A stretch of 30,090 nucleotides of DNA from Vermamoeba vermiformis (lineage: Eukaryota). Positions 6,901 through 30,090 of this stretch are shown here, one piece after another (the stretch's first letter is position 1; each line of letters opens with the position of its first letter). Below the pieces are notes generated by a model that searched no databases, was not told the DNA's origin, and saw only the letters and a list, made by a program, of their open reading frames with translations. Location of the stretch: assembly GCA_045837725.1 (NCBI GenBank), contig JBEWZL010000163.1, positions 620,001 to 650,090 of the forward strand, given 5' to 3'. Made by a program: the position numbers and the translations under genes.

Positions 6901-9468
6901 TTACATTCTCGCCGATCGACTGATAATTGTCGGTTAGTACTAGTAAACTTTCCAGCCTTCAACAACAAATGCACTACTTACTTTTTAGGCAAGTCGAACG
7001 GTCCTTCGTTGGACGCTGTGCCTCCGCTGGTTGTAATCTCCGTGGCACTAGCAATGAAACAGTTAGTCACAGTGTTTTGTAAGGCGTCGAAAGTAGGCTG
7101 TGATACATACGTAGTAGATTTGGCTAGCTTTTCAGCAGCATTTCTTCGTCGACCGAACAAGGACGGTTTCGTGGCCAACAACTTCTCTTTGCCCTTGTTG
7201 TCGTTGTCGCGGTTCTCCATAGCAATGTACACTCGCTTTTCGAGACCAGTGTAGATCTAAAGAGCATACGTTAGCACAAAATTAAACCAAGTTGCTTTTT
7301 GACACGTGTCAAAGTGTCTTCTGCACGGATCCATACCTGTCTGGGGCGGTAGATCTTCATGCCAGCAGGGTCTTGCAAGGCTTCAACCCAGTGAGCTAAC
7401 CAGCCTGCAACTCTAGGAATGCAGAACAAGACAGGGAACATATCGGTAGGGAAGCCCATGGCGTTGTAGATCAAACCAGAGTAGAAGTCGACGTTAGGGA
7501 ACAACTTGCGGCTGATGAAGTACTCGTCAGCCAAGGCTTGTTTCTCCAACTCGATGGCGATCTCCATCAACGGGTTCTTTCCGAGCACGTCAAACACCTC
7601 GAAAGTGATGTCCTTCATGACCTTGGCACGAGGATCGTAGTTCTTGTAAATGCGGTGACCGAAGCCAAACAAGATCTTCTTCTTGTCCTTGACGTCTTGC
7701 AAGAAGGCAGGAACGTTGGCGGGTGAGCCGATTTGTTCCAACATTCGCAAAACAGCTTCATTGGCACCACCGTGCAAGGGACCGTAGAGTGCACCAGCGG
7801 CACCAGAGACGGCAGTGTACGGATCAACGAGAGTCGATGAAATTTGACGCATAGTCGCGGTACTGCAGTTCAACTCGTGATCAGCGTGCAAGATCCAGAT
7901 CTTGTCAAGAGCCTGTTTTGAACGATTTAAATCAGCTTACTATTATATTTCACGATACTGGGACCTCGTAATATTATAGGGGCCGGTACTTACTCTGGCG
8001 AGCACGGGGTGAGGGCGGTAATTGTTCTCAGACAATCTGTCCAACATGTACATAAAGTTCTCGACGTACGACAGGTAGTTGACGGGGTTGTTGTAAGGTC
8101 TAAATATTAAATATAATACCATTAGTACCGAATTCATAGCACGCGCTACGCTTGCAAATAAATCGAATTTACAATTGCAGATTAAATGTACGGAAGAAAA
8201 TAAAATTTGGCTTCAGTCACTTACCGACCAATGCGATGTCTGTAGGCGCAAGCGGCAATAGTGGGAATCTTGCCCAAAATTCTGAAGATTTGTTTGTTGC
8301 GCATAGCAGGATCTTGGTAGAGATCTGAGCCTTGCAAAGCAGGATTCGCATCCGGATAGAAAGTACCCATGGCAGAGATCGAGCTGACCAACATACCCAT
8401 AGGATGAGCGTCGTATCTGAATGTTTGCATCAATTCGACCAAGTTCTCGTGGATGAAAGTGTGGCGCATAATGGTAGTCTCCCATTGCTTCTTTTGAACC
8501 TAATCCACAAAAACAATTAATAAAAAACTCCTACAATATATACCGTATATTATTATGATCTTTTTTATATCGATAGCGAGTTTATCGTAAAAATAAAAGT
8601 TTCGATTTTGACGGGCGAGTTCAAGTCACCGTAAATCGCTCGGTAATTGCACGAATAACTCCGTTTAAATATCTTTAATTACCTTGTTAGGGAGTTCGCC
8701 ATAAATAAGCAAGTAAGCGACCTCCAAGAAAGTGGATTTCTCGACGAGTTCTTCAATGTCGTAGCCGCGGTAAGTCAAAACACCCTTATCTCCGTCAATC
8801 TTGCAAATTTTAGATTTGCAGCAAGCGGTATTGAAGTAGCCACCGTCATAAACCCTAATAAAGTGCGTTAGGTTCTCGAAGGATCCAGCGACAGAAATTG
8901 CAAGTTGCATAAATTCAGAAAAATGCTCTAAAAGATTGCAAATATGAATTGCTTGATGTATATCGAATATAGATATGATTTTAATTACTTAGAAAATTAA
9001 AAGAAAATTACTTACACCAAGCCGACATCGTCAGGATCTGCCGTCTTGATATTTTTGAAGTCAGTAGCGTTGATGGCATTTTGGCCAATAGGAACGGTGT
9101 ATTCCTTGCCAGTTCTAGAGTCCTTAACGGAAAGCTTCTCTCTGTAGCAAAAATGAATTTATTAGCGAATATTCAATCTCGAACTTGAAGCTGCACCAGA
9201 AAAAATTTGCGCTCAAATGGCATAAAAAAATCGATAAAATAATAGAGGTATTATGTTTAACATTAAAACTTTAAAATAAAGCCGGAGAACCAAAAAGTTC
9301 CCAGCCAGATTAGATGCCTTTTCGTAAATTAATCCTTAGAGGGAATAATTGTTATCAATATATGTCAACTAAACTCTTCAATTAAATTTCTTTTCATCAT
9401 CAATGTACGAGACCGCATTAAGCGACGTTTACTTACTTTGCTTCTTCTTTACGTGGAGCAGATGCCAT
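6901..9468 (-). CDS. Citrate synthase, peroxisomal/bacterial-like type (multi-exon)
   Basis: Motifs [67 protein letters not shown] and IYRPRQ. Probable ATG at 9468 ([10 protein letters not shown]). A terminal exon at 6901-6919 gives ...PKNRSARM*. Confidence 0.95.
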
Positions 9469-22422: not shown

Positions 22423-23759
22423 CTATGAATCAGGAGTTGATTCATTCAGAGCACTAATGACTGGAGCAAATCCATAGAAGGCAAGGTACAATGGAGACAC
22501 TACTGCATTGGCTGGAATGGTGCACAATCTGGCTTTTCTGTTCTCAACATCAGCTTGGCTAAGTCCTTTGGCACTGCCAAGTGTATCCATGCAAGTCTTA
22601 ACCTAAATAGAGTTAGTTAATGTAAACCAACAAAGTTTTCACTCACATCAACAACAGAAACTGCTATTGGTGCCAGAGTTGCATAATAAAAATTTGGGTT
22701 TTCCAAAGTGGCCAGGGCAATTCTGGCTATTGCTTCAGGATTTGGCTGCAAATGGTTAGAAATTTGTGAACAGCTGCAAATATTACCATAGGCTGGTACT
22801 GTGTTGCTTGTAGCCCCAAGAATATTTGTCTTCCATCAGTTGTGGTTAGGGGTACAACAACATTGGCAAATTCAGAGTTTGTTACATCAACTGTCACTAC
22901 TTGGGCTTCATGTATTTTGTTTAAAAGATCAGCGGACTGATCTGAAATTCTTCTGGAGAGTTGTACAACTCCTTTCCAAGCAGCCTACACAAGTTCTTAA
23001 TGACAGGGTATTGAATTATTTAGGCATACCTTCGCTGTTTTAATGCCTTCGATATTTAAGACTGGAGTGTCCATTTCCAGAATAGACTGCAGTTCAATTT
23101 GACTCAGTTTTGTTTCCAACTGTTGTACTGTCTGTTGCACGTACAAACTTATTGCTGTAGCTTTCTCAAAAAGTGAGCCCTTCATTGAATTGTCAAAGTT
23201 GAGCTGCTTGGCCATATCAGGGTGAAGAATTAGAGAGCCAAGGGTCATTTCCAAGCATTTCCAGTCTTCTGTTGATCCAATTTTGTTCTTTACAACTGTC
23301 AAAGGCTTCATGAGGATGTCATCGAGCAAGAAGAATGGTCGTGTGTAGTGCTTCTTAGTTTCGCTTATTTTGAGCCAATGAACCAAGTATCCACATTCTT
23401 CTAAGTCAGCTGGGCAATAGCTAATACCTTCACTTGCCACATCAGTTTGTTGGGTAAGACACAAAGCAGCTTTGATGTCTAGCAACTCAAGTCTATCTGC
23501 AGTAGGTTGTGGCACATTTGCAGGCCAGTGAGAAAAGTCCTCACCATAAGTTTCCCAAATTTTGTCTCTCACTTTGGTCTCAATCTCCAGTAATAAATTG
23601 ATGGCCTGTTCTGGGTCAGTACCCCACAATAAGGTTTCTGCTTGTGGAACTCTGTCATAAATCTCCTCCACCATGTATGAAATTGCTCTTGGGATGCCAA
23701 AAGTGCGAATGAAGGTATGTAACAACATTTCAGAAGTCTTTGGATGCAGTGTTGGTTTT
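22423..23759 (-). pseudogene. 5'-truncated Crinkler/RHS-like (NTPase + restriction-endonuclease-fold) gene, C-terminal four exons
   Basis: TFGIPRAI, GSLFEKAT, NSEFANVV...IFLGLQAT and terminal AFYG resemble CR-effector NTPase-REase C-termini. The first visible exon starts at a splice acceptor, and no upstream exon is seen before the transposon. Confidence 0.5.
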
Positions 23760-24027
23760 CTGACAAAAGTTAGCGTTCAGTCAGTAAGAGTGTAGTAATC
23801 TTGCTTGTGTTGGTTTCCAGTAGACACTTGTCGTGGAAGCACTTTCACTACCATAGTTGAGGTCGATTTCCACTACGAGATTGAAATCTCGATCTCGTCA
23901 AATCTCGCGAGACAGAGTCCTCTGTGAGATATCGTTTTGACTACATGCATTACCTCAGCGAGATCGGACCAGTGGGTGTGATGGTATTATTACGTGACAA
24001 TCAAGGATCTGCAATAATTTATCGAAA

Positions 24028-24061
24028 GGTATTGTAAAAACCCATTTGGGTGTATTTCATT
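24028..24061 (+). repeat. Inner part of left terminal inverted repeat
   Basis: GGTATTGTAAAAACCCATTTGGGTGTATTTCATT matches the reverse complement of the window end, GGTATTGTAAAAACCCAGTTGGGTATATTTCATT. Confidence 0.92.
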
Positions 24062-24144
24062 TATTCTTTGTGTGTAAAGTTTTCTTTTGCTTTTCTATTG
24101 TTCTTCAGTTTATTAGGCAGAATTAGCTAACACCAGAATAAATA

Positions 24145-25585
24145 TCAAAGTTTGTTTGCAAGTAAGAAGGCAGTACGGAATGAGCTGTCTGCCTCTGCTT
24201 GCTGCTGTTGTTGTAGAATTGTCATGAACTGGGCCTGTTGCTGTGCCATAGAGTGTCTGTGCTGCATTTGCTGCAACTCCAGTATACTTTGGAGATATTG
24301 GTTGCTTGCATTGTTTGCAGTATTCAACACAGAAGTGGGAACTGGGCTGGGTGTCAATCCTGTAGTTTGAGGACTCAAGTGGACAGCTGGAACTCCAACT
24401 AATTCAGTTGTGTTAGTGGCAGCAGTGGGTGCAGCTTGCGGTGGTGGGAGCTTTGGTAATGTTGGCTTGTGAATGGACTTTGTCTTGTTCTTAAGTGGGA
24501 TAACTTCATCTTCTGACTCTGATGCAGACAAACTTTGCAATTGTCGTCATTTGACCAAAGAAGGCTCTACTACAGCAATAGGTCTCTTCTGATCTTTAGC
24601 AACAAGTCCCTTGCTTGCTCCTGTAAACGTCTTTGTCAAAACCTATCGGTAATAGAATTTGCTACCTTTTTTGCTTGGCGCAGCTGGCTTTACCAGTGTT
24701 CTTGAGGCACGTACTGGCTGGGTCCTAGAAGCCTTTTTTGCTGGCTCTGTTTTCACAGTAGGTTTTGGAGAGACTTTTCTAGTCTGGACAACGTAAATAA
24801 ATAGGGTTATATTGTTTCTGACATACCTTTGCTGCATAATAAGCCTTAAACAATTCATCCAGGCACTCTTTTTGACTATTGCTAGCTTTGCCTTCAACTG
24901 ACTCGACATCACTGAACTTGACTTCAATTACAGATTTAAGGGAAGGATCTGCAAGGAGAACCTTGTTGAATTGCTTATTGCGAATGATGAATAGCACTGT
25001 ATGCAAGCCAATGACATTTTTTACAACCACTGTATCTCCAACTTCGACAGCAAAGTCATCCATCCGCCGAGTCACTTTATAATAATAATTGCCATTCCAA
25101 GGCTCTCCGTGGTACTTGTAGAACTCAGTATATACCTCTAAATCAGCAACAAGTCAGAGTTGATCCAATAATGCCTTATTACTTACCTTTGTTATCGGCA
25201 GAGTTCAGCCCGCCGAAGGAAGATTTTTCTTCTTGGACACTGTCATTGCTTACTATAATTGATTTATGTATGAGTAATACTTACAATAATAAATTAATAT
25301 GTACCTTCATTATTGGAATTACCAATAGGAATTTTGGTTTGCCGATCAGGATTGAGGGACTCAATTTTTTCTTCTAGCCATTAAAAATTAGTTTCCTTAT
25401 AAATAAAGAGACATCATAATGTTGGGAAAATTATAGAATAATTAAGAGAGTTAATTACCAGCTATTAATGATTCCCGAGTGGATTTTGGACTGGGCGGGG
25501 GATTTTGCTTTGGCTGCTGGGCTTCACTGTCAACTGATGCAGCAGTAGGGTTGTCAATTAATACCTTGTCAGTATCCTCACTCAT
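24145..25585 (-). pseudogene. Transposon accessory gene: BAH/SH3-like segment, K/P-rich linker and Q-rich helix, with one in-frame TGA
   Basis: Six phase-compatible exons from MSEDTDK (ATG 25585) through YYYKVTRRMDDFAVEVGDTVVVK to ...FRTAFLLANKL*. There is an internal AAA-TGA-CGA with the TGA at 24547-24549. Confidence 0.7.
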
Positions 25586-26433
25586 TGTGGTGTTCATGTA
25601 ATGATTTCCGAGGACAATTGGATTTGGTTACCCATAAAAGGAAATTAACCAGGGCACTTGCTACGGAGAAGTTATTTGACCATTATTTCATTCCAATAAT
25701 AACATTAAACAACACCTATAGTTCAAATCACCTATTATATACCTCATACAACACATCATTATCAAGGCAACTCAATGGATTCAAAACTAATGTAAGTCAA
25801 GGTGGATTTAACTTTACATCTTGCTCGGAAATTATTACATATGAAGACATATATCAATTTATAATTATATATGCATTATAATAATTTAAATATGCTAGTT
25901 TAATGGCTATTTTGAATTTTTGAGGAGAAAATTGATCGGCATAATTTCATATCCAGCTCGGAAATTGTTAGGTATCAACATAATACATAATAATAACATA
26001 TGTATGCTGCTTATATTATATATATCCCATATCTATCATTTTGGGGCTGATCATTGCATATTCAAAAAGCCTATTATCTGTTCTGTCTCGTGCACCAGTC
26101 AAATCCTTGCCGTAAGAGGGTTTTCAATCTATAGTATCATTACTAATTAACCAAATTGTTTCAAACATGGTGTATGCATTTGTACATATACAATGAGCAA
26201 TACTAAAGCTTTGATATATATTTTAAAGATGGTTTTGCTAGTTCAGTTCTGCCGATCTAGATCTGACAAGATCCACTACTCATGAGTAAAAGAGAATTGA
26301 AGTAACTCCTATCCCTATTCATTGTGCTTACAATTATTTATGCTATTAGTAATGGCAGTAGCTGGACTATTGAGTTGATGCAAGTAAAGTTCTCTCGGGT
26401 CATCTTTGTTGACAATTTCTGTGCCTTACCCAG

Positions 26434-26803
26434 ACTTTGCCGAACTCTATTAAGTATATATATGGTATTACAATACCTCATGTAGTTTATATATGCAATT
26501 GATTTTGGTAAGAAAAATCATGATTGCCCAACACTGGTGTAACGTAACTTTAACTTCAACTTCGTGTGCAGCACGACTTTGCCGAACTCAACTAAATATA
26601 ATGCTGGCAGTTATTCATTGCATCTAATATATATATAGCACTGTTATGGCTAGCTAAAATCGTAGGGGTTCACAGTGGTGCGCATCAACCCTCTTGCTGC
26701 TGACGTAAAACAGCACTACTTTGCCGAACGACTCTTACTATTCTATGCTATTGATCATCATATAATGATACAAAATTGACCAACAATATAGATTTTAAAA
26801 ATC
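26434..26803 (+). repeat. Degenerate tandem repeat with 142-bp period
   Basis: ACTTTGCCGAAC at 26434, 26576 and 26718; AAAATC at 26514, 26656 and 26798. Confidence 0.85.
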
Positions 26804-26844
26804 ACTATTCATGTGCAGTTCATTAATACTGTTACTTCAGGAAA

Positions 26845-29800
26845 ATGACATTCCAAGGCTTTCAATGGGGCTCTAACAGTAAGTTAAGCACTATTAATAG
26901 AATGACCTAACAATGGTAGATATGAATGACCTATGCACTATTGAGACAGTTGGCTTCGTTCTTCGGCTAGTGCTGCAAAAATTGCCAGGACACAAGTTTG
27001 AGAGTGACTTTTTTAAACTATTGACGGGTTGGATTAATAATGGACCACTATCCAATGAAAGGCTACACCAATTAAAATTGGATCTGATAGATGCCCTTGG
27101 TCCTGTTGTAGGCTGGGTGCCTTGCAAGACTTATGTCTCAATTGGTGCAATACTCACGGCAGCTTTCAAAACTCTGTCAATTGCCGAATCAGCATTATTT
27201 GTCTCTACTCTTAAAGTTGTTAGCCACTGCAAATGTCCTACAACAACAAAGCTATTTCATCAAGTGGCAGTTTTTGTTGAAGAAAAACTGACTGACAGTA
27301 CACTCTCACTCCAAGCTGCACTCAACCACTTAGCAGACTACAACTGCCAGCTACCCATCAACTGCTATGATTGTGGAATACAACCTGTTGAACATCGTAA
27401 GTTCAATTAGAAGAAATGAATTTGATATTAAACTGTGTAGGTACATTGGAGTTGCCACAAGTTTTGACTGTCGAGTTAGGAAGACTCAAAAGGCAATTTA
27501 GCAACCCAAATATAACCATCGAGCCAGTTTTAACTGTCAACAATTGTCAGTATGACCTATTAGCTGTAATGATGTGCACTGGAGCCCACACTACATGCTA
27601 TTTTGTGCAACAGTCAGTCTTGTATTTCTATGATGGCATGCAAAATGAAGGAATTGCCACTCCAGTGGCAGAAACACTTGAAACAAGCAAATCTAAGATA
27701 TATTATGACCACATTGTGTACTTAAAACGACAGGTAATTTAACCTGGTTTAGTTCTTCTAAGCATTAACTCTTGTTAGAATTCTGCACCTGTTTCGAAAG
27801 CCATCAATGCAAAAGACCTATTTACTACCTTGCAAGTGCAGCCAGAAAGTACCCCAATTGCCTCGCAGAATCTGTTCCAAGTCCTAACAAAGAATATCAT
27901 TCCATCTGAAAAACTCAAGTCATTAAAAAAACAAAAGTTACTTGGGGCTGATTCAATTAACAAAGGTACTTATAACTTGCAAATTTTAGATCTAACTAAC
28001 ATTTTCCAGTTGCAGCTACAAACTGTTGTAAGGCTAGATGTACTGAACTCTTCACTACCAGCCAGATTCTGGAAAGCCGCAAGATGGTGGCTGAGCTCAA
28101 TGACAGTCAGAAAACTAAGTGGCTGATGAAATTTTTTGAAACAAACATGAACATTGATAGCCCAGCTGTTGCTTTCCTGGTAGGAGGTGTATCAGTTTGT
28201 CAGCTTGCATTTTGCAGAGTTTATGGAGTGTCTGTCGACAAGGTTATTCAATGCAAGCAACAATACCTAAATGGAACAAAGGCTCATATGCATGGTAATT
28301 GCTTTTGGGTGTATGACTCCCCAAAGAGAGACTCAGTAGCCGCTTGGATCCAAAACTATTGCAATACATATGGTGATTATGTGCCAACTAAAGATGAAAT
28401 TCACTTACCATCACACATGACGTAAGTTCTTGTTCTGATACTGTGATTGCTAACCAATGCAAGTGTGAAGGAATGGTACAATCTGTTTTCTGGTGAATTT
28501 GCCAATCTTCACCCAGGAGCTGACACACCAAGCTATGAAACTTTCAAGCAGGTCAAGCGCAAATGGTTTGCAGTAAGTTACTATGTGCATCTTTCAATTT
28601 TGCTAAAGATTTTAGAATGTTAAATGCCCGAAGGAGACTCGACTTGGCAAATGTTCAACCTGTTTATTGATTAAACAACGGCGACTACAGTGCCCTTCAG
28701 AAGATAAGCTGTTGCAATTGAAACAGCAGATGAATGAACACATAGATTATATTACAAAGGACAGACAGATGTATCGGCAAAGAGCAGATATTGCCATTAA
28801 GCAACCCTTCTTGAAGATGAGCATCATTACAGACAAAAGTGGCAGTTTTCAACTTCCTCAGCACCATCCAATGCCAAAAGAATGGGCGAATATTAACCTT
28901 TTGCAAGCAAGCTTTGTAGGCTTCATTAACCACGGACTGAACAAGAAAGAGTTAGTGTTTTTCAAGGAGTCTGATTACATTGCAGATGCAGACTTTTACA
29001 TCTCACTCCTGTTCCATCATTTGAAAGAATCTTTGCTATCAATTCAACCACAAAATAGACCAACAACACTGTATTTACAAGTAGATAACAGTGCAGCTGA
29101 AGGCAAAAATCAATATTTGCTTCAATTTGCAGCATTACTAGTGCACAATGAGTGGTTTGAAGAGGTTTTCATTCATTATTTACAACCTGGCCACACACAT
29201 GAAGATATTGACCGACTATTTCAACCATTTCATACTTACTTCCAATGGAAAGTTATTGAAACTATGAATGATGCTATTACATTTGCAAAGTCAATCTATC
29301 CCAAGGATGTGTATATTCATGAACTCCAATGGCCCATTCTTTCCTGGAAAAAGTGGTTTCTCACATTCTGCTCATCAATGAGTGGTCACAAAGACAAATA
29401 TGCTTTTTGGCTAAAGAAAGGACTTGATGGCACTCCAACACTCCTGTTCAAACAAAAATCTCTCGATGAAAATTGGATTGAAGTTGAAGAATCAGTGTTT
29501 AGTCATTCTCCGTCAGCCGAACCTGTAGCACTTCAACCAAACCCTGTGTCCAAGGAGTTGATAGCCACAATAGTGACAAAGACCTCTAAATTTCTTTCTG
29601 AAAAGGTGAGGATTGTACTTTACTATTCAGTTACTAACATGTTGCAGGGCATCGAATATTACAAAGGTCTGGAGAGAACAGAAGAGGTGAAAGTTATGAC
29701 AGAATTGTTCCAGATTGGCCAAGTTAAACGTGAAGGACCAGAGCTTGTGGTCTCATCAGAAAAAGAACCAACAATGGTCAATTTAAAGAAGCGTAAACGG

Positions 29801-30044
29801 CAGGTTGAAGGTACCTTCAAATCATAGGTTTATTCTTAATTGTTACTCATTTTTGTTTGCAGATGAGGCAGAATGGGTAGTTAAAAGTATTATAGACCAC
29901 CGAAAAGTTGGACGTAAGTTAGAGTGGCTGGTACTTTGGGACGGAGGACAACAGTCCTGGGAGCCACGTAATTGCTTCATAGATGCAGACCAAAGCAAGA
30001 ATGAAGTATGGGCTGACTATGAAAAGAAGAGATTGAGCAAATGA
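26845..30044 (+). CDS. USP-like peptidase - DDD/E transposase - chromodomain fusion (948 aa, 9 exons)
   Basis: Exons 26845-26878, 26920-27396, 27441-27733, 27779-27965, 28010-28421, 28464-28572, 28616-29605, 29648-29810 and 29863-30044 total 2847 nt with no stop. Peptidase: FQWGSNNMNDLCTIET, two Cys pairs, YDLLAVMMCTGAH, YFYDGM. Transposase: CCKARC, VCQLAFCRVYGVS, KCSTC, IITDKS, LYLQVDNSAAEGKN, PGHTHEDIDRLF. Chromodomain: WVVKSIIDHR...WLVLWDG...SWEP. Confidence 0.88.
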
Positions 30045-30056
30045 TAGTCTAAAATT

Positions 30057-30090
30057 AATGAAATATACCCAACTGGGTTTTTACAATACC
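30057..30090 (-). repeat. Inner part of right terminal inverted repeat (truncated by window end)
   Basis: Reverse complement of 24028-24061 with 2 mismatches. It begins 13 nt after the transposase stop. Confidence 0.92.

Follow-up and report, generated by a model that had tools for sequence, protein, structure and literature searches.

An apparently intact inverted-repeat transposon of Vermamoeba vermiformis with a predicted transposase joining a USP-like domain, a DUF7869 core and a chromodomain

Described transposase fusions and the present element

Fusions of transposases to proteases of the ubiquitin and SUMO systems have been known for two decades, with Ulp1 in Mutator elements and OTU or Ulp1 in Ginger1, and to our knowledge nobody knows what role these protease domains play in transposition. 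Here, we describe a mobile-element locus of Vermamoeba vermiformis that lies in a stretch of 30,090 nucleotides (assembly GCA_045837725.1, contig JBEWZL010000163.1, forward-strand positions 620,001 to 650,090; referred to below as the window, with positions counted from its first letter). The window is eukaryotic DNA of ~40% G+C in which introns are very short. The locus is probably best explained as an intact-looking cut-and-paste transposon with terminal inverted repeats (TIRs), the 948-residue transposase of which would combine an N-terminal domain resembling the ubiquitin-specific proteases (USPs), a catalytic core of Pfam family DUF7869 and a C-terminal chromodomain.

The nearest described relatives in architecture are Ginger1 transposases with OTU (pfam02338) or Ulp1 (pfam02902) domains and Mutator elements carrying Ulp1 (Bao, Kapitonov & Jurka, 2010; PMC2836005); the authors suggested, for these OTU and Ulp1 fusions, that transposition involves the ubiquitin pathway. 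As described in the accessible part of that paper, they share with the present locus the plan of a TIR-bounded cut-and-paste element in which the DDE-type transposase carries a fused cysteine protease of the type that removes ubiquitin or ubiquitin-like modifiers (UBLs). In Ginger1, however, the protease is C-terminal, the core is Gypsy-integrase-like with a GPY/F motif and the same part of the paper reports no chromodomain, whereas the protein described here begins with its USP-shaped, protease-like part, has a core of the DUF7869 family and ends in a chromodomain. The only fusion of a USP (peptidase family C19) to a DNA transposase that we found in the literature is XP_001314237.1 of Trichomonas vaginalis, which combines transposase_11 (IS5-like) with Peptidase C19 (cited in PMC2836005). 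It differs in belonging to the IS5/pfam01609 superfamily, in having a C19 domain that a profile recognizes and in that its description in the available text, from which alone the comparison was made, mentions no chromodomain.

Chromodomains at the extreme C-terminus of element-inserting enzymes have been reported for chromovirus (Gypsy) integrases (PMC6839031), for Polinton and adintovirus integrases (PMC8502044) and for the tyrosine recombinase of Enterprise elements, Kirc (PMC8092012), and the chromodomain of long-terminal-repeat elements is believed to direct integration to particular chromatin (PMC6839031). The present protein has its chromodomain in the same position. Those enzymes, however, are retroviral-type integrases or, for Kirc, a tyrosine recombinase, with no deubiquitinase-like module described in the accessible parts of these sources, and the chromodomain of the present protein retains two of three cage aromatics. 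Tc1/mariner transposases (the catalytic domains of Mos1 and Metnase/SETMAR) form a further related system. The likeness to two intronless proteins, P0001 (708 residues) and P0014 (569 residues), lies in the DUF7869 core, which scores 161 bits in each at 29–31% identity, in three invariant Asp residues and an HTH..ID motif, and in a Cys-rich region before the core, which resembles residues 331–504 of the present protein by eye, without an alignment. Both differ from it in having neither the USP-like N-terminal domain nor the chromodomain.

In the literature covered, which took in little of the subscription journals, Repbase Reports and supplements, we met neither a cut-and-paste transposase that bears a chromodomain nor one that bears both modules, and DUF7869 is not mentioned. 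A first-pass annotation of this DNA, made from its letters, had named no earlier description of the three-part architecture; our search likewise met no description, and an earlier one may exist in the sources outside its coverage. Each of the ideas has a precedent; what appears to be undescribed is their combination, together with the family and its orphan USP-like domain. The element would offer a compact and apparently intact test case: with a candidate catalytic triad, a separable chromatin-reader module, defined TIRs and naturally broken relatives, the role of the protease becomes testable by mutation. It would also assign a function to DUF7869, that of catalytic core in a TIR transposon, and would add a cut-and-paste, non-integrase transposase to the mobile-element enzymes with a C-terminal chromodomain.

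The transposon and its transposase gene

Positions 24028–24065 of the window are the reverse complement of positions 30053–30090 at 35 of 38 sites. The 5′ TIR (24017–24065, + strand) contains the core GGTATTGTAAAAACCCATTTGGGT at 24028–24051, and the 3′ TIR (30053–30090, − strand) starts 8 nt past the stop codon of the transposase gene and is clipped by the end of the window. The 24-nt core occurs in exactly two copies in the window, inverted with respect to each other, and two or more matches were reached in none of 100 shuffles. Six related loci (L001–L006) were fetched from metagenome contigs, in which paralogues of one genome and orthologues of related species are indistinguishable. Comparison of the window with these loci showed that a short stretch near 24020–24073 matches, reversed, the DNA directly past the stop codon of L004, and the ends are common to the window, L005 (5′ end) and L004 (3′ end). 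The 3′ repeat of L004 follows its stop codon and extends ~11 nt further outward, and the 5′ end of the element in the window was therefore placed near 24017. The transposase gene (26845–30044, + strand) sits within a TIR-bounded DNA transposon that runs from ~24017 to beyond 30090, at least 6.07 kb (~6.1 kb) in all, and the copy looks intact and of the cut-and-paste type. The earlier annotation had given the extent as 26845–30044, which holds for the transposase gene; the TIRs, a second gene and the true extent of the element had been missed. The two genes diverge outward from a central region of 1.25 kb. TA flanks all four of the ends examined, as a TA duplication would have it; none of these belongs to a copy with both ends plus host flanks, and the repeat might just as well begin with TA itself.

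Strong purifying selection on all parts of the protein (see below) would also suit an immobile host gene, domesticated from a transposase and serving as a chromatin-bound deubiquitinase or DNA-binding factor, as would the colinearity of L006 with the window over 24147–27058. The colinear stretch lies inside the TIRs, however, and is element sequence rather than host synteny. The TIRs are too closely matched and too near the stop codon to fit such a gene well, both candidate acidic triads of the core are intact, and the flank of the 5′ TIR in L005 differs from that in the window. Relatives with frameshifts and nonsense codons and a TIR-bounded, gene-less segment of 1.1 kb (both described below) are typical of a transposon family. 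We consider domestication very unlikely, and treat the locus as a transposon in what follows.

The gene model was built with a script that listed the GT..AG introns following each of eight plausible donors, and the longest solution was taken. It contains nine GT..AG-bounded exons that splice into a single stop-free open reading frame (ORF) of 948 residues closed by a TGA codon at 30042–30044, with introns of 41–52 nt. The same nine-exon frame had been proposed in the first-pass annotation and was recovered by this enumeration, with identical predicted junctions at 27733/27779, 27965/28010 and 29810/29863; the motifs named there (NDLCTIET, CKC, CYDC, AVMMCTGAH, YFYDGM, DN..KN and GHTHEDID) are all present in the translation. 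The exons, all on the + strand, occupy 26845–26878 (exon 1), 26920–27396 (exon 2), 27441–27733 (exon 3), 27779–27965 (exon 4), 28010–28421 (exon 5), 28464–28572 (exon 6), 28616–29605 (exon 7), 29648–29810 (exon 8) and 29863–30044 (exon 9). Exons 1–3 encode the USP-like domain (residues 1–268), exon 4 a poorly conserved linker (residues 269–330), exons 5 and 6 the Cys-rich N-terminal region of the transposase (residues 331–504), exon 7 the DUF7869 core (residues 505–834), exon 8 a spacer (residues 835–888) whose translation contains a basic KKRKRQ stretch that may serve in nuclear localization, and exon 9 the chromodomain (residues 889–948) and the stop codon. A ciliate-type genetic code was ruled out: the standard code reads the whole ORF, and the introns contain TAA and TAG. 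No RNA run is listed as containing the stretch, and three RNA runs that carry the species label (X22–X24) gave no reads on 26000–30090 with ~46–48% of each run covered, the organism not having been shown to be present in them.

Exons 2–7 of L001 measure 477, 293, 187, 412, 109 and 990 nt, identical to those of the window, and contain no stops. The introns of L001 are 43–50 nt, such that intron length drifts between relatives at fixed exon length; donor and acceptor dinucleotides are mostly conserved. L004 conserves the order and spacing of the nine exons, and tblastn recovers the full architecture (residues 1–948) in it at 50–92% amino-acid identity per piece. The ratio of nonsynonymous to synonymous substitution rates (dN/dS) was computed for eight exons (2–9) against L003 or L004, with dS values of 0.6–2.1; against L001, dS is saturated. 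The ratios range from 0.047 to 0.25, with 0.09–0.12 for exon 2, 0.093 for each of exons 3, 5 and 6 and 0.047 for exon 7 (all against L003/L004), 0.21 for exon 4 (against L003), and 0.25 for exon 8 and 0.057 for exon 9 (both against L004). Because relatives keep the exon lengths while the intron lengths drift, and because dN/dS is low, the gene model goes beyond what chance would give. Its weakest point is the 5′ end: the ATG of exon 1 is conserved in L004 and L005 and is lost in L001.

Exon 4 is where the single frame could come apart, into a USP-like protein of 268–270 residues (exons 1–3) and a transposase–chromodomain protein that begins at exon 5. It is the least conserved piece, with 37% amino-acid identity to L001; retention of intron 3 would end the frame two codons past exon 3, and the intronless P0001 and P0014 have the transposase part without the USP-like part. 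Exon 4 nevertheless has the same 187 nt and is stop-free in both L001 and L003, is under selection by the ratio given above and keeps its GT/AG pair in L003 (the mapped acceptor in L001 is AA). With all phases compatible and the exon order and spacing of L004 conserved as well, two separate products seem quite unlikely, and the domains are described here as parts of one protein.

Domains of the predicted transposase

The N-terminal domain (26845–27733, + strand) contains a candidate Cys–His–Asp triad of C17, H220 and D235. Between the Cys and His boxes lie two cysteine pairs, a CxC at 115/117 and a CxxC at 160/163, which would form a zinc ribbon (C115, C117, C160 and C163); the zinc-ribbon fingers of USPs carry two such pairs. 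C17 and the four zinc-ribbon cysteines are conserved in every relative that covers them (the zinc cysteines in all five), and H220 and D235 are invariant in four of four sequences. Since the length of intron 2 does not divide by three, the domain was searched and folded as two pieces, corresponding to exon 2 and exon 3. Folding of exons 2 and 3 read through as one piece was dropped (intron 2 has 44 nt in the window and 46 nt in L001, and contains a stop in L003).

In the model of the exon-2 piece, residues 1–93 have predicted local distance difference test (pLDDT) values of 61–86 and residues 94–158 lie below 50, as does the region of the cysteine pairs. C17 is placed where the first helix of a predicted helical thumb subdomain begins. 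In an all-against-all structure search of 48,161 chains USPs rank first, and 23 of the 50 listed rows are titled USP, Ubp8 or USP-like; PAN2 (ranks 14 and 35), OTU deubiquitinases and coronavirus PLpro (ranks 27, 30, 34, 38 and 41) are also among the structural matches listed. The matched ranges of these chains begin ~4 residues before what we take to be the catalytic Cys of each enzyme (that of USP35, C450, is given in the title of its row), which would put Cys5 of the model, C17 of the protein, on that residue; the placement uses the ends of the ranges only and assumes no early gap.

When the exon-2 and exon-3 pieces were co-folded with a zinc ion, the score was 0.63, compared with 0.01 for the best of three controls. 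In calibration this mark is reached by 51 of 78 solved complexes and by two of 108 mismatched pairs, and in eukaryotes by 39 of 65 solved pairs without a like complex among older structures, by 71 of 105 overall and by two of 126 unrelated pairs. Between runs, at least 62% of contacts recur, with a partner pLDDT of at least 73. The predicted interface packs the helix of residues 5–17 against residues 48–52 (in which H49 is H220) and 63–66 (in which D64 is D235) of the partner; Cys5 contacts residue 50, and in the numbering of the protein Cys17 is predicted to adjoin residues 219–223, His220 included. On the strength of the structure search and the co-fold, residues 1–268 probably adopt a USP fold, and the balance tips slightly towards the domain being catalytically active. 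The USP-like peptidase proposed at the N-terminus from the first reading of the DNA agrees with these two results; the sequence searches and the Foldseek search, given below, lend it nothing. The domain is named USP-like, and is not assigned to family C19, because no family profile matches it.

PAN2, which has the USP fold and is non-catalytic, stands among the matches listed, and the module could likewise be a pseudo-enzyme that keeps the fold, and perhaps a contact with ubiquitin, a UBL or another protein, without cleavage, and that docks the transposase on a host factor or on chromatin that bears ubiquitin or SUMO. Its sequence is indeed too distant from real USPs for any profile or PDB match, and the usual His-box GHY is replaced by (A/S)HT. 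Pseudo-enzymes, however, usually lose at least one residue of the triad, whereas C17, H220 and D235 are conserved in every lineage that covers them at a dN/dS of ~0.1, and the co-fold sets the Cys helix against the His and Asp loops. Complete loss of cleavage is thus rather doubtful in our view. The PLpro-type viral proteases of the same fold, at the ranks given above, bring to mind a protease acting in cis, which would cut the 948-residue precursor into a free protease and a free transposase as coronavirus PLpro does with its polyprotein. The linker (residues 269–330) contains no Gly-Gly, the GG pairs of the protein fall only within the N-terminal region of the transposase and the chromodomain, and nothing else speaks for self-cleavage, which we regard as extremely improbable. 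A USP-like domain that stays joined to the transposase is the reading retained.

The core, encoded by exon 7, matches Pfam DUF7869 (PF25273) over profile positions 2–190 of 192 with 134.3 bits against a cut-off of 26 (E = 5.1e-39). Among the other Pfam families, Tc1/mariner included, none exceeds its cut-off (a single sub-threshold microprotein row appears at E ≤ 1), and phmmer against the PDB gave no match. D577, D661 and D703 (D73, D157 and D199 of the exon) are invariant in nine of nine aligned sequences, two intronless ones of ~30% identity included. E700 (E196 of the exon) is changed, to Lys, only in L001 and P0010, the lineage that is also without the exon-1 ATG. The top 12 structural matches of the predicted exon-7 structure are all mariner transposases or retroviral integrases, and the best Foldseek match of the model is the IstA transposase (E = 5.8e-3); these models suggest an RNase-H-like fold with three conserved acidic residues. 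The middle of the protein, with its DN..KN and GHTHEDID motifs, had been taken for a transposase, and the family match, the predicted fold and the position of the gene between TIRs all bear this out. P0001 was the only longer relative that a search with exon 7 returned. The Cys-rich region that precedes the core (28010–28572, + strand) is found by tblastn in L001, L003 and L004 and is presumed to bind DNA.

As to the superfamily, the TA flanks, the closest solved folds and the short gap of 38–41 residues that separates the second acidic residue from the third point towards a Tc1/mariner-like enzyme. Cores of the CMC group have a long insert between the second and third acidic residues; with the third residue only 38–41 past the second, CMC membership is unlikely. 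This weighs against the CMC/Chapaev-like side of the choice originally offered (Sola1-like or CMC/Chapaev-like).

The chromodomain is the best conserved part of the protein, with 92% amino-acid identity to L004. A phmmer search of exon 9 against the PDB (177,635 sequences) returned chromodomain chains in its first 12 rows, ten of HP1/CBX and two of cpSRP43, with E values from 4.6e-4 to 0.016, and a C-terminal chromodomain, as first annotated, is upheld by this likeness despite the Pfam score reported in the next paragraph.

A number of observations weigh against a TIR transposon with a three-part transposase. Several concern the USP-like domain. The exon-2 and exon-3 pieces match no Pfam family at E ≤ 1, UCH (PF00443) and UCH_1 (PF13423) included, and give chance rows only with phmmer against the PDB at E ≤ 10; the domain has no usable match in the ESM Atlas, and HMMER against 1.84 billion representatives returned four matches, of which three are close exon fragments (P0002–P0004). 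The fourth, P0005, is a bacterial repeat protein and was judged spurious. The exon-2 model, folded with six relatives, is poor (mean pLDDT of 57), and with Foldseek it finds nothing in the PDB at E ≤ 0.001, the top rows being helical bundles of the ferritin/Dps type at E ≥ 1. The co-fold was run without alignments of the relatives and with a zinc ion added, which makes the calibration counts rough, and the model may have passed because it had memorized solved structures of USPs; such a pass would itself indicate likeness to USPs, yet it would not be independent proof. In the core, the third catalytic residue may be either E700 or D703. The chromodomain scores 16.8 bits against the Pfam Chromo profile (PF00385), below the cut-off of 25.1 (E = 0.0065), and the L004 copy gives the same value. 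Of the aromatic residues said in the first-pass annotation to be kept, W893 and W914 are present and align to the first two positions of what we take to be the methyl-lysine cage of HP1, while the third position aligns to G917; because of this glycine, reading of methyl-lysine is possible and not assured. Chromodomains of the cpSRP43 type, which rank second among the matches, bind other peptides. We infer a single mRNA with all nine exons from phase, conservation and selection only. Finally, no copy with both ends and both flanks occurs among the window and the fetched loci, which accordingly show no target-site duplication or empty site.

If the preferred reading is correct, the N-terminal domain would be built in the manner of USPs, with the Cys at the first thumb helix, the CxC...CxxC zinc ribbon and then a sheet bearing His220 and Asp235. 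The Cys-rich region and the DUF7869 core (D577, D661 and E700 or D703) would cut and join DNA at the TIRs in excision and integration. The chromodomain might tether the transposase to nucleosomes with a histone mark, as proposed for chromovirus integrases, and the USP-like domain might strip ubiquitin or a UBL from the transposase itself, which would stabilize it, or, at the site, from chromatin or repair factors. A tighter coupling can be imagined, in which the chromodomain binds a methylated histone tail, ubiquitin or a UBL (e.g. SUMO) is removed by the USP-like domain, either from that nucleosome or one next to it or from repair factors, and the DDD core then cuts or inserts DNA at this place. 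We put this forward tentatively and think it unlikely; if true, the transposase would itself edit a chromatin mark where it inserts or excises. The gene-dense setting of the element (see below) is not expected for one that seeks heterochromatin.

Second gene, box array and relatives

The second gene of the element is multi-exonic, occupies 24145–25597 on the − strand (ATG at 25597, stop codon at 24147–24145) and is transcribed away from the transposase gene; its splice model is provisional. Its three open pieces (25627–25454, 25153–24782 and 24546–24148, all − strand) were compared with L006 by tblastn and show 65%, 82% and 71% amino-acid identity to it, respectively; the DNA there is ~70% identical. 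No Pfam family scores above its cut-off with this gene, and the Atlas gave no usable match (best score 0.82). Its C-terminus is Gln-rich.

Between the two divergent genes, the 12-bp box ACTTTGCCGAAC occurs three times on the + strand, at 26434, 26576 and 26718 (26434–26729), with copies exactly 142 bp apart. These are its only exact matches in the window, and three were reached in none of 100 shuffles. An array of three boxes with the same 142-bp spacing and at most two mismatches is found in five of the six loci, at 934–1229 in L001, 968–1263 in L003, 530–825 in L004, 3420–3715 in L005 and 2469–2764 in L006; L002 starts too late to cover the region, and all five loci that cover it therefore have the boxes. 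Outside the boxes, the units are only 31–50% alike. The spacing looks selected because it is kept where synonymous sites are saturated. The array could be a set of binding sites for a protein of the element or a promoter with phased nucleosomes. A spacing of 142 bp is close to one nucleosome, and within the coupled scheme considered above, which we hold to be unlikely, it could be part of a control at the level of chromatin. Across lineages, the box takes the form ACTTTGCC(G/A)AAC upstream of the transposase ATG, and a second small box, (C)AAAAAT(C), lies ~77 nt into each 142-bp unit.

The relatives fall into several lineages, with 72–89% protein identity in exon 7. L001 is almost identical to L002; L003, L004 and L006 are almost identical to one another (99%), and L005 is 95–97% like the lineage of these three. 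Decayed copies occur: exon 2 lacks 2 nt in both L003 and L004, and exon 3 of L003 is interrupted by a nonsense codon. P0007 represents an intact exon 2 from this lineage. In the lineage of L001 and P0010 (the latter representing 11 member sequences) the exon-1 ATG is lost and RHTHKDID stands in place of GHTHEDID, with exons 2–7 of L001 open; this may be either a young inactive lineage or one mobilized in trans.

L005 has a second copy of the TIR, in the opposite orientation and 1.1 kb beyond the first. The segment between the two inverted copies (1241–2345) has TA on both sides, contains no long ORF, shows no likeness to the interior of the element and abuts element-internal sequence at just one of its ends. 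Either a non-autonomous relative within a rearranged copy or an assembly chimera may explain it.

The host DNA around the element is dense in genes. The nearest long host ORF (22997–23776, − strand) lies ~240 bp from the element; an ORF at 7271–7936 (− strand) reads as citrate-synthase-like from its translation, and other ORFs are spread across 1100–23800. Contigs of X2, the best DNA run, contain a second variant of 26178–29924 with, for example, eight differences in 163 nt at 26927–27089; its word depth is about half that of the main variant (1185 compared with 2374), and an allele, a second copy or a second strain could account for it. In metagenome runs from aquifer, water and soil (X4–X9), contigs contain 27–58% of the sampled words of 26400–30090, which hints that such habitats harbour the host or close relatives as free-living organisms.

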